Counted from the first letter of the stretch, positions 1,614 through 24,478 are shown. The stretch is 24,478 nt of DNA from Candidatus Krumholzibacteriota bacterium (GCA_039714075.1 JBDLKA010000050.1:1-24478), one strand, 5' to 3'. Program-made: numbers and translations. Notes: generated by a model not told the origin, from the sequence alone.

Positions 1614-1967
1614 GGGGGCGACCTGGCTTCGACGTGGTCGGGGGACCGTGGACTGCATGCCGAGATTCCATGTGCTCGTTAAACGGTGGAAAAACCATTA
1701 AGTGACGAAAACAATTTCGCACTGGCTGCCTAAATAGGTAGCCCGTCCCGGGATCGGGGGGTCACCGAACTGATCTCAAGGGGCGCCGTTTTCGGTGTCT
1801 AGTTTCAAGGCAGGTCTCTGGCCTTGGGGCGAAATTTAAGTGAGTACTAGCCTGGCGGGCGGCACGTGACCTGGCCTCCCAACAGGTTAAATAACAGGTC
1901 ACTATGCATGTAGACGTCTGCGGGGTACCGGTTACGGACGCGGGTTCGATTCCCGCCGCCTCCACCA
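1614..1967 (+). ncRNA. ssrA: tmRNA (transfer-messenger RNA), tag peptide (A)DENNFALAA
   Basis: 5' GGGGGCG...GGCTTCGAC and 3' GCGGGTTCGATTCCCGC-CGCCTCC-ACCA form an Ala acceptor stem with a G3.U70 pair and a T-arm. Tag frame GAC GAA AAC AAT TTC GCA CTG GCT GCC TAA at 1704-1733. Length 354 nt. Confidence 0.97.
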
Positions 1968-2131
1968 ATCATTCCGCAAGCACCCTTGTGTTCCAGGGAC
2001 GCCGCCCTTCGCCATCCATGGCTACGGCCGGCTCGCACTCCGGCCTGTTCGCCCTCCATGGCGAACAGACCTCCGTGACGCCCTGTAACACAAGGGTGCT
2101 TGCGGAATGATTGGTGGAGGCGGTGGGAGTC
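1948..2131. repeat. Long inverted repeat (arms 1948-1998 and 2081-2131) including the tmRNA 3' end
   Basis: The arms are reverse complements with a 37-bp perfect core (1956-1992 / 2087-2123), two G.T pairs and one C/T mismatch. The 82-nt spacer contains smaller hairpins. Confidence 0.93.
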
Positions 2132-2293
2132 TCTGCTATGGGGGAGGCGGGTCATGACCCCGCGCGGATAATTCCTGGCGTTGACGCCTTGGGGATGGAA
2201 GGAAAATAATGGGAGTCCGGGAGCATGGATTTGCCGGCGGTATCGCCGGCTTGTTACCTTGAATCAAAATCCTTATCGGAAACGGAGATGGAA

Positions 2294-3112
2294 ATGTCAT
2301 CGGTCACATCCCTTACCGTACTCGGTGCCGGCAACATCGGCACCGCCATTGCCCGCGGCCTCGTGAAAGCGGGTCTTCTGGACGCCGGTCACATCACCCT
2401 GACCCGTCGCCACGCCGACAGGTTGACAGAATTGGCTTCCGAGGGTTTTGCCACGACAGTGGACAACAAGGTTGCCGTCGCGGCTTCGGATCTGGTAGTC
2501 GTGGCGGTGGAGCCCGGCCAACTCGATGAGTTGCTGGTTGCGGCCGGACAGGCTTTTGAACCCGGGCGTCACACTCTTGTCTCAGTGGTTTCAGGCGCCT
2601 CGGTTGCCGACATTCAGCGGCATCTGAAACAGGGTGTTGCGGTGGTCCGTGCCATGCCCAATACCGCCATCGCGGTGGGGGAGTCCATGACCTGTCTGGC
2701 CGCCACACCGGACGGCGCGAACGGGTTGGCTCTGGCGGAAAGTGTTTTCCAGGCCGTGGGCACCACCCTGGTCATCGACGAGGAACAGATGAGTTCGGCG
2801 ACCGCCCTGTGCGCCTGCGGCACGGCGTTTTTCCTGCGGGCCATCCGCGCCGCCAGTCAGGGAGGTATCGAAATCGGCTTCCACTCGAACGACGCGCTAG
2901 CCATGGCCGCGCAGACGGCCAAGGGGGCGGCGGCCCTGCTGCTGGCCAGGCGGCTTCACCCGGAACGGGAAATCGACCGGGTCACCACGCCGCGGGGAGC
3001 GACCATCTCAGGATTGAACGAGATGGAGCACCAGGGTTTCAGTTCGGCGATGATCAAGGGCATTACCACTTCGGCGGAAAAGGTGGATCGGCTATACAAG
3101 AAGAAAGACTGA
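2294..3112 (+). CDS. proC: Pyrroline-5-carboxylate reductase
   Basis: GAGNIG Rossmann motif, VVRAMPN, and the ProC signature IDRVTTPRGATISGL. Start placed at ATG 2294 after GGAG; ATG 2288 is an alternative. Confidence 0.95.
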   Translation: MSSVTSLTVLGAGNIGTAIARGLVKAGLLDAGHITLTRRHADRLTELASEGFATTVDNKVAVAASDLVVVAVEPGQLDELLVAAGQAFEPGRHTLVSVVSGASVADIQRHLKQGVAVVRAMPNTAIAVGESMTCLAATPDGANGLALAESVFQAVGTTLVIDEEQMSSATALCACGTAFFLRAIRAASQGGIEIGFHSNDALAMAAQTAKGAAALLLARRLHPEREIDRVTTPRGATISGLNEMEHQGFSSAMIKGITTSAEKVDRLYKKKD

Positions 3113-24234: not shown

Positions 24235-24411
24235 ATGGATCTGATGAAAAAATTCTGGTTGCTGTGGGCCGCCCTGGGGGCCGTTGTCCTGGGATTTGTC
24301 ACTCTGTCGGCCGGAATGTTGACCATCGGCCCGGTTCTGCTGGTTCTCGGTTATTGTATTTTGCTGCCGTTTTTCCTGTGGCGATCGTTTCAGGAAAGTG
24401 TGGGCGAATAG
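24235..24411 (+). CDS. Small two-TM membrane protein (58 aa), possibly DUF3098-like
   Basis: GAGGA RBS then ATG. Sequence MDLMKKFWLLWAALGAVVLGFVTLSAGMLTIGPVLLVLGYCILLPFFLWRSFQESVGE has two hydrophobic helices. The 'P.LLVLGY' motif resembles DUF3098 from memory (unverified). Confidence 0.7.
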   Translation: MDLMKKFWLLWAALGAVVLGFVTLSAGMLTIGPVLLVLGYCILLPFFLWRSFQESVGE

Positions 24412-24478
24412 TTCAGTTGGCTAGAGCGCCTGCTTTACACGCAGGAAGTCACAGGTTCGAGTCCTGTTTCGCCCACCA
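24402..24478 (+). tRNA. tRNA-Val (anticodon UAC), CCA encoded
   Basis: Cloverleaf: GGGCGAA/TTCGCCC acceptor, GTTC/GAGC D-stem, CCTGC-TT TAC AC-GCAGG anticodon arm, ACAGG-TTCGAGT-CCTGT T-arm, ACCA end; 77 nt. Confidence 0.98.

Follow-up and report, generated by a model that had tools for sequence, protein, structure and literature searches.

A mobile TwoAYGGAY-class palindrome behind the tmRNA gene of a Krumholzibacteriota bacterium, with a stem that probably spread into ssrA

The ssrA Locus

In a 24,478-nt stretch of DNA from Candidatus Krumholzibacteriota bacterium (GCA_039714075.1 JBDLKA010000050.1:1-24478), hereafter the window, the gene for transfer-messenger RNA (tmRNA), ssrA, is followed by a long palindrome whose arms include the 3' end of the gene itself. 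The subject of the present analysis is this palindrome, its relationship to the TwoAYGGAY RNA class and the way in which its stem may have come to include part of ssrA. The gene runs from 1614 to 1967 on the plus strand, is full length and encodes its CCA end. The ARAGORN call, with the tag DENNFALAA*, has the same span as the match to Rfam model RF00023, which is covered completely (model 1-374/374, 173 bits, E 4.1e-69). Throughout, G000 denotes the genome under study, other G numbers its relatives, L numbers loci and C numbers contigs.

The repeat search and an alignment of the arms from four species delimit an inverted repeat of 51 nt that is 94% complementary and spaced by 82 nt. The left arm (1948-1998) consists of the last 20 nt of ssrA (1948-1967) and 31 nt of species-specific flank (1968-1998), and the right arm (2081-2131) mirrors this flank at 2081-2111 and carries an inverted copy of the ssrA 3' end at 2112-2131. 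Mismatches occur at arm positions 3, 8 and 46 (3/51) and frame 37 perfect pairs in a row; in plus-strand RNA they would read U.G, G.U and C.U, respectively. Folding of 1940-2140 as RNA gave -145.7 kcal/mol against a mean of -74.1 (sd 4.7) for shuffled sequences (z -15.2), and none of the 200 shuffles equalled it. An earlier sequence-only reading had already described the hairpin, and its geometry stands: the coordinates and length were returned by the repeat search, and the 37 consecutive pairs, together with the wobble pairing of two of the three deviations in plus-strand RNA, were found again on reading the arms. Its statement that no integrase lies nearby also agrees with a Pfam scan of the 18 open reading frames (ORFs) of the window (16 ORFs, ten of them with a family match, plus two further ones, proC and one without a match), among which no integrase, recombinase or transposase family was detected.

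A TwoAYGGAY-Class Element

The part between the arms was called a spacer in that reading. When the own genome was searched with 1948-2131, the matches on other contigs ran through the centre of the query and not through its arms, and the 82-nt spacer proved to be the conserved part, with an opposite-strand match to a described RNA family. This core (1999-2080, minus strand), delimited by its length, by alignment and covariation and by our own covariance model R1, consists of two hairpins on a common stem. One hairpin, at 2001-2032 on the minus strand, bears the terminal loop AUGGAU (2014-2019), as supported by the sequence, the fold and the Rfam alignment; the other, at 2042-2071 on the same strand, is built from repeat arms 2042-2053 and 2060-2071 and is predicted by the fold to expose the loop AUGGAG (2054-2059).

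A permissive Rfam scan matched the whole model (1-168) of RF01731, the TwoAYGGAY RNA, to 1954-2125 on the minus strand with 37.4 bits (E 1.3e-4), the gathering score of this family being 43 bits. The same model finds nine matches in the own genome, two of which exceed the cut-off (G000:C131:3454-3620, 47.2 bits; G000:C12:13029-13190, 43.3 bits), and a single model accommodates all sister copies together with the ssrA copy. On its minus strand, the ssrA copy has a first loop that fits the AYGGAY consensus and a second one that fits at five of six positions; most sister copies have a fitting first loop only, their second loop being ACACGAUGU or ACAGGAUGU. Because of the whole-model match, the sister copies above the cut-off and the loop sequences, the element is placed in the TwoAYGGAY class, with the ssrA copy as a sub-threshold member.

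Every copy read in the own genome has the same layout, namely a conserved centre between inverted repeats that differ from copy to copy. The core measures 82-83 nt in 9 of the 11 copies of G000. Arms of 46-51 bp are found in seven of these copies, and the other four have arms of 27-35 bp with a decayed outward continuation; each old copy has a stem of its own, of 25-56 bp. A loose 14-mer scan allowing two mismatches gave 107 matches, mostly in coding DNA, and was too noisy, so covariance models were used instead. R1 was built from the 11 G000 copies and comprises the core plus 12 bp of stem; it scores the ssrA copy at 82.1 bits (1987-2092, minus strand).

The fold is well supported by covariation. 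In the consensus fold of the 11 G000 copies, 26 of 34 pairs are compensated. With 93 copies aligned to R1, 95.6% of the cells pair against 67.0% in column shuffles (0/500 as high) and 37-47% in controls with slid partners, and changes on both sides are seen at 30 of the 34 pairs. In the inner basal stem and the outer part of the first hairpin (P1), 46 G.U pairs were counted on the Rfam strand against 13 A.C, the latter being G.U on the other strand, in an alignment which is fitted to the model and slightly favors G.U. Since G.U outnumber A.C in this way, the inner stem appears to be selected at the RNA level, and the bias points to an RNA with the sequence of the Rfam strand; at ssrA, this strand would be antisense to tmRNA. 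The outer arms of the 11 copies hold 440 Watson-Crick pairs, 8 G.U, 13 A.C and 3 transversion mismatches, numbers that are small and show no strand bias. Taken together, this suggests a two-layer picture, added here to the description of the class, in which an RNA-selected inner fold lies beneath an outer palindrome maintained at the DNA level.

Copy Number and Insertion Sites

R1 returned 12 matches in G000, 11 clear and one weak. All eight genomes of the genus carry the element, with 4-12 copies per genome, and in the family matches came from 41 of the 61 genomes, which represent 19 of the 28 genera (0-57 copies per genome). The exact 20-nt motif of the first hairpin also occurs, among the matches listed, in Marinobacter, Planctomycetota, Desulfatiglandales, Gemmatimonadota and one Krumholzibacteriia record; in the Marinobacter copies, too, the outer stems are copy-specific.

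The 11 G000 copies lie behind unrelated genes, and five of their sites lie between convergent genes. One copy (G000:C153:5559-5719; L027/L151) is situated inside an uninterrupted 525-aa frame for TrpE (anthranilate synthase), where it separates the N-terminal domain (aa 27-170) from the chorismate-binding domain (aa 253-507), and resembles the in-frame insertions into genes that are known for Rickettsia palindromic elements (RPEs). At G000:C131:3276-3629 (L020), two copies adjoin each other as a divergent pair flanked by convergent genes, and the same doublet is present in G006, G004 and G001.

ARAGORN was also run on 60 loci with element copies. A selenocysteine tRNA (tRNA-SeC) gene was found about 0.5 kb away in three of them and tmRNA in one, and no tRNA or tmRNA overlapped an arm at any of the other copies in these loci. 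In another genus of the family, an element copy lies about 80-120 nt upstream of ssrA and not downstream of it (L097 1001-1105 and 1224-1582 in G077:C1; G014:C4:8952-9531), and the neighbourhood of ssrA has therefore been colonised independently.

Mobility of the Whole Hairpin

Evidence for movement comes from G077, a genome with 57 copies. In the 19 copies read, the core is always 81 nt long, and ten of the 19 share arm sequence, indicating that the arms travel with the core in this young subfamily. Filled and empty sites could be compared at two loci. At L109, the distance between convergent stop codons is about 232-251 bp in G077, but among G066, G053 and G014 it is 9 bp in two species and 28 bp in one; at L096, 247 bp in G077 correspond to 25-30 bp in G014 and G053. 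The L096 site of G066 (79 bp versus 301 bp) was not classed as empty. Both arms, of about 70 nt each, lie inside the inserted DNA, and neither is present in the empty sites. From these pairs it follows that the whole hairpin, arms included, is mobile. The comparison holds for the element family at other loci and not for the ssrA copy.

This bears on the idea with which we began on seeing copy-specific arms, namely that insertion duplicates the target flank in inverted orientation, so that the left arm is native and the right arm a newly made mirror. Such a process would readily give a unique stem at every old copy and gene ends inside the arms, as at ssrA and, as described below, at glmS. Nevertheless, at the two recent insertions (L096 in two species, L109 in three) both arms form part of the insertion and the empty sites lack them, and the young G077 copies share arms among themselves (10/19). 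For these two insertions the idea was rejected, and as a general account it is very improbable. Among the three proposals of the sequence-only reading, that of a miniature inverted-repeat transposable element (MITE)-like element with termini derived from the tmRNA end comes closest and is partly right: the hairpin behind ssrA represents a mobile element with many copies, but the termini of this element are not of tmRNA origin except for the outer 20 bp of this one copy, which probably arose when the stem spread secondarily.

At L109 and L096 no direct repeat of at least 4 bp is evident as a target-site duplication, at junctions that are not placeable to the base. The Y1/RAYT (IS200) transposase was considered as mobiliser and dropped: Y1_Tnp (PF01797), the only transposase family screened across the family, occurs in 7 of 61 genomes and does not track copy number, being absent from all four genomes in each of two high-copy genera, one of them with 33-57 copies. 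A candidate empty site in Marinobacter turned out to be a 5'-truncated element copy. Two other G077 loci, L095 and L101, offered no empty site, the relatives that span them being filled. At L095, G014 carries an insertion sequence (IS)-like insertion in place of the element. At L116 2185-3433 (G014:C39), a 1.25-kb IS-like insertion with terminal inverted repeats of about 29 bp and a 366-aa ORF sits between convergent genes where G077 and G066 have the element, and without it the stop codons of the flanking genes would overlap.

The ssrA Copy in Related Species

The ssrA locus was obtained from four of the seven other genomes of the genus, and six loci of other genera were added. Three of the former (G005, G003 and G007) have the element behind ssrA at the same place and in the same orientation. 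In the fourth, G002, ssrA is followed by a plain GC hairpin and T run, and the genes further downstream are not the same. Read by eye, a GC hairpin with a T run follows ssrA directly in G002 and other genera, and the six loci of other genera contain no ssrA mirror. The outer boundary of the repeat falls on the same T-arm base in all four element-bearing species, and thus the mirror predates their split. In G003 (G003:C78; L011 about 1970-2100), one core hairpin of the ssrA copy is replaced by about 130 nt of sequence rich in G/C homopolymers, which may be an insertion or assembly noise.

Recurrence in three other assemblies is one reason for regarding the structure as real. A fold-back artefact of assembly, which the sequence-only reading had named as the finding that would undo it, might be feared in a fragmented genome of 260 contigs, where element copies often lie close to contig ends. 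However, four separately assembled species have the same structure behind ssrA with species-specific arm sequence, one covarying structure fits 93 copies from many genomes, and the right arm is succeeded by ordinary unique sequence and proC. In addition, a Logan contig from run X1, the probable source sample, crosses the structure from 1963 to 2116 with no differences. Contigs from X3 and X10 do not cover 1978-2112, and those from X2 hardly do so (mean depth 0.72 in one bin and 0 in the next three). The 24 public runs listed are kept as assembled contigs, a form which holds no information on transcripts, their ends and strand or a second spacer orientation. An artefact is accordingly next to impossible.

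The orthologous copies also show how the arms evolve. The inner arm of the ssrA copy (31 nt) is only 42-71% identical between species, yet within one copy the two inner arms (30-31 nt) differ at 1, 1, 3 and 4 positions in the four species. In the outer 20 nt, where the left arm is fixed as the tmRNA end, the corresponding numbers are 2, 1, 2 and 3. Four more orthologous groups behave alike, the arms of one copy matching at 88-100% (22/25 to 50/52) against 62-92% for the same arm between species. Third-codon positions of flanking orthologous genes, taken from other loci as the gene upstream of ssrA is not syntenic in the other species, are 0.57-0.74 identical, and the inner arms at ssrA are as diverged as these positions. 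Orthologous arms are therefore much less alike across species than the two arms within a single copy.

The core has kept its orientation relative to the flanking genes in all checkable groups (4/4 at ssrA, 3/3 and 3/3), which argues against frequent inversion through crossing-over between the arms. It also bears on a further proposal of the sequence-only reading, that the arms are inverted attachment (att)-like sites of an invertible or remnant integrative element. The 3' ends of ssrA genes are classic integration sites, and the att duplications of genomic islands are integrase-made direct repeats around kilobases of cargo. In such islands a second ssrA 3' end lies just downstream, as it does here, and the arm indeed includes the end of the gene. 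Nevertheless, the copy behind ssrA is inverted and not direct, it lies 113 nt away, and none of the 18 ORFs scanned in the window belongs to an integrase or recombinase family. The orientation of the core is identical in four of four species, the core itself is a multi-copy match to an RNA family, and the repeat is the element's own stem. An att origin is thus extremely improbable, and this proposal is not supported.

A Second Captured Gene End at glmS

A gene end has been mirrored at a second place. In G004, the arm behind glmS holds the last nine codons of GlmS and its stop (...NLAKAVTVE*), and the opposite arm contains an inverted copy that reads NLAKVVTVQ* and lies inside no real gene. The arms of this copy measure 54 bp and contain six mismatches, every one of them in the glmS part. 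The tail of GlmS is mirrored in G004, G000, G065 and G012, representing three genera. In G065, from another genus, 24 of 29 positions match in the coding part, and the mirror of G012, from a third genus, is more decayed. In G004, G000 and G065, the stop codon of the respective genome is also found in the mirror (TGA, TGA and TAA); in G012 the stop is TAG and the mirror reads CAG. Both the end of tmRNA and the tail of GlmS are ancient sequences under constraint, and at ssrA and glmS alike it is therefore clear that the gene was the source and the opposite side of the element the recipient of the copy.

The surroundings of glmS have a history of their own. In G004 the order is simply glmS, element, ridA. 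In G000:C2:31506-36617 (L147-L150, L053), full-length glmS is followed by a weak copy, a gene with RCC1 repeats and a FlgD-Ig domain, a duplicate of the 3' part of glmS that encodes 144 aa (90% identity across 279 nt), a good copy and ridA. The arrangement resembles an insertion of 2.7 kb flanked on both sides by a directly repeated unit of glmS end and element, and the duplication complicates the use of this region as an empty-site test. A tRNA-SeC gene is located about 0.5 kb from the glmS-adjacent copy in three genera (L032 828-925, L074 2158-2255 and L090 888-985), and since it recurs in three genera, the neighbourhood of glmS, element, ridA and tRNA-SeC is old.

Arm-to-Arm Copying as a Probable Origin of the Mirrored Ends

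We favor, with a probability of about 0.6, the reading that the hairpin is the ssrA copy of a mobile TwoAYGGAY-class palindrome, whose stem has been kept and extended into ssrA by copying from arm to arm. The link with tmRNA would then most likely be a by-product of the spreading of the palindrome and not a tmRNA-specific device.

In this reading, a long closing stem bears at its tip the core of about 82 nt with the two GGA-loop hairpins. As the filled and empty sites show, the hairpin transposes as a whole; it enters narrow intervals downstream of genes, in many cases where two genes converge, and once it is inserted its arms evolve in concert. During replication, the nascent strand may sometimes snap back: after copying the second arm, it would fold on the first and extend on itself. 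A switch within the arm would erase mismatches between the arms, and synthesis past the foot of the stem would write the flank as its reverse complement beyond the element. Before the four species split, such a tract probably copied the last 20 nt of ssrA across the element, giving the 51-bp repeat, and the end of glmS was probably captured in the same way. The inner stem and core also appear to be selected as minus-strand RNA, antisense to ssrA and possibly binding CsrA. Any effect on tmRNA maturation would be a by-product that the cell tolerates.

At both ssrA and glmS the mirrors are adjacent to their donor and continuous with the existing stem, and species-specific arm segments are mirrored. 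Mobility of the whole hairpin, arms that evolve in concert and the two mirrored gene ends are shown by the data; for the process behind them, we infer that intramolecular template switching is the simplest single one which could yield all three patterns. Template switching has been described as creating and repairing perfect stems of RNA genes (PMC8794818). Non-crossover gene conversion between the arms could have served as an alternative process, and so could strong selection for pairing together with one copying event.

Several observations weigh against this interpretation or limit its reach. Template switching is deduced from patterns that strong pairing selection could equally give. The spread at ssrA after insertion is argued from other loci, as there is no empty site for the ssrA copy, and the copy itself remains below the RF01731 gathering score (37.4 vs 43 bits). 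A G-to-A mismatch in the outer 20 bp is common to three of the four species, so this segment has not been re-copied since those species split, and its 1-3 differences are barely fewer than rough neutral decay predicts. The glmS mirror of G000 is largely decayed, with 13 of 25 pairs left. Moreover, the G.U bias of 46:13 at the RNA level weakens copying alone as the keeper of the stems, and the outer-arm count of 8 versus 13 is too small to exclude RNA-level selection there.

Consequences for tmRNA

The sequence-only reading had proposed that a read-through precursor would lose its acceptor stem to the duplex, and the thermodynamic part of this proposal is supported by folding. The minimum free energy predicted for 1614-2140 is -281.9 kcal/mol with the right arm and -200.9 kcal/mol without it. 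With the right arm, the 3' strand of the acceptor and T-stems of ssrA would pair with that arm and the 5' acceptor strand would enter a local hairpin, so that the acceptor stem is not formed. A scan of 1450-2450 found no intrinsic terminator with a U tract on the plus strand after ssrA; the 51-bp stem, which is followed by UCUCUGCU and is not a short GC hairpin with a U tract, is not an intrinsic terminator either. Since no such terminator intervenes between CCA and the element, transcription of ssrA probably enters it. The genome encodes a protein with an RNase III domain (124.8 bits).

In the same interval, no sigma-70-like promoter was found on the minus strand that could serve an element RNA. 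The only sigma-70-like match there (TTGACG, 18 nt, AATAAT) is at 2181-2210 on the plus strand, ahead of proC (2225-3112). At the other extremity of the window, a tRNA-Val(TAC) gene runs to the contig end (24402-24478 by ARAGORN, 24402-24475 by Rfam).

In a functional explanation, the long stem, including the ssrA mirror, would be kept by selection for an RNA function, and the arms would change by ordinary compensatory mutation. The read-through duplex might end transcription, a cut by RNase III might make the 3' end of tmRNA, or the 3' arm of a minus-strand RNA might act as an antisense to tmRNA. The lack of a U-tract terminator between CCA and the element, compared with the GC hairpin and T run in G002 and other genera, would fit such a role, as would the predicted pairing of the ssrA 3' strand with the right arm, the RNase III gene and the preservation of the arrangement in four species. 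The shared mismatch at arm position 8 would be a G.U on the plus strand, and the 46:13 bias speaks for selection on RNA in the inner stems, albeit on the minus strand. However, long copy-specific stems are present at all other copies, next to infB, metG, trpE and TonB-like genes, and because they adjoin unrelated genes the stem is a property of the element and not of ssrA. The outer arms have no strand bias in their wobbles (8 vs 13). The inner arms, 42-71% identical when third-codon positions are at 0.57-0.74, change faster than stepwise compensation predicts, and the 20-nt mirror would need a copying event in any case. A functional origin is hence unlikely, although it retains an appreciable share of the probability.

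There is a further possibility. Having spread, the stem might couple the element to host RNA, so that 3'-end formation of ssrA and glmS would depend on cutting of the duplex, or the minus-strand RNA of the element would gain an antisense-plus-decoy pair against the gene, and the mirror would be kept by continual re-copying. This is a doubtful prospect; if it were true, a selfish RNA-like element would have found a novel route into the maturation of host RNA.

An ordinary origin for a striking structure at an essential RNA gene would help to keep the structure from being annotated wrongly as a regulatory device of tmRNA or as an att site. For the TwoAYGGAY family, which still has no function, the analysis adds filled and empty sites as proof of movement of the whole hairpin, a long stem that evolves in concert and two captures of gene ends, at ssrA and glmS. 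If arm-to-arm copying is true, much of the basal-stem covariation in covariance models may be mutational and not selected. The ssrA case also constitutes a natural experiment on tmRNA maturation, in which the acceptor strand is lockable in a 51-bp duplex.

Comparison With Known Elements and Processes

The TwoAYGGAY motif (RF01731) was catalogued by Weinberg et al. (2010; PMC2864571). The elements described here resemble it in having two successive hairpins with GGA hexaloops on a common long basal stem, in being multi-copy and in not being bound to 5' untranslated regions. They differ from it in that the stems reach about 50 bp and extend into neighbouring genes, and one loop of the ssrA copy reads AUGGAG. 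This lineage is not among the taxa listed for the motif in 2010 (PMC2864571). Among the papers listed on TwoAYGGAY, and in the titles and abstract openings of those on tmRNA and inverted repeats, none was seen to describe a long hairpin with the 3' end of ssrA in inverted orientation.

Recently, extended TwoAYGGAY elements have been reported from Pseudomonas, with swings in copy number, frequent divergent doublets and a suggested mobile-like spread, and their GGA loops were proposed as Csr/Rsm sites (Li et al., 2026; bioRxiv 10.64898/2026.09.22.753630). Uneven copy number, a divergent doublet (G000:C131) and GGA loops are found here as well. The Pseudomonas elements have extra hairpins, a pseudoknot, flanking short repeats and a sequence mostly conserved between copies (Li et al., 2026), whereas the present ones show no such extensions and instead have copy-specific long stems, filled and empty sites and captured gene ends. 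The main text of that report makes no mention of tmRNA, ssrA, glmS, "template switch" or "empty site." The genome under study has a CsrA gene (84.2 bits), and GGA occurs in both loops and beside P1. By analogy, the element RNA may possibly bind CsrA. The co-occurrence of gene and element is uninformative, because 57 of 61 family genomes have CsrA with or without the element.

For the proposed copying process, the closest parallel is the template-switch mutation described in rRNA genes (Monttinen and Loytynoja, 2022; PMC8794818), which likewise produces reverse-complement copies beside the donor, a stem in one event and multi-base "compensatory" repair. That work concerns stems of 2-10 bp, and here the tracts would comprise 20-30 nt and lie at the base of a mobile element's stem of 30 bp. 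Unlike the rRNA cases, the tracts proposed here would overwrite or add DNA beside essential genes.

The elements may also be compared with the small palindromes of bacterial genomes. Bacterial MITEs and repetitive extragenic palindromic (REP)/REPIN sequences, such as Correia, enterobacterial repetitive intergenic consensus (ERIC), RPE and REPIN-RAYT elements, are small, non-coding, palindromic and intergenic, often lie behind stop codons and are polymorphic in their insertion between relatives. As with RPEs, one of the present copies is found inside an open trpE frame. Classical MITEs conserve their terminal repeats, whereas in these elements it is the centre that is conserved and the ends that drift.

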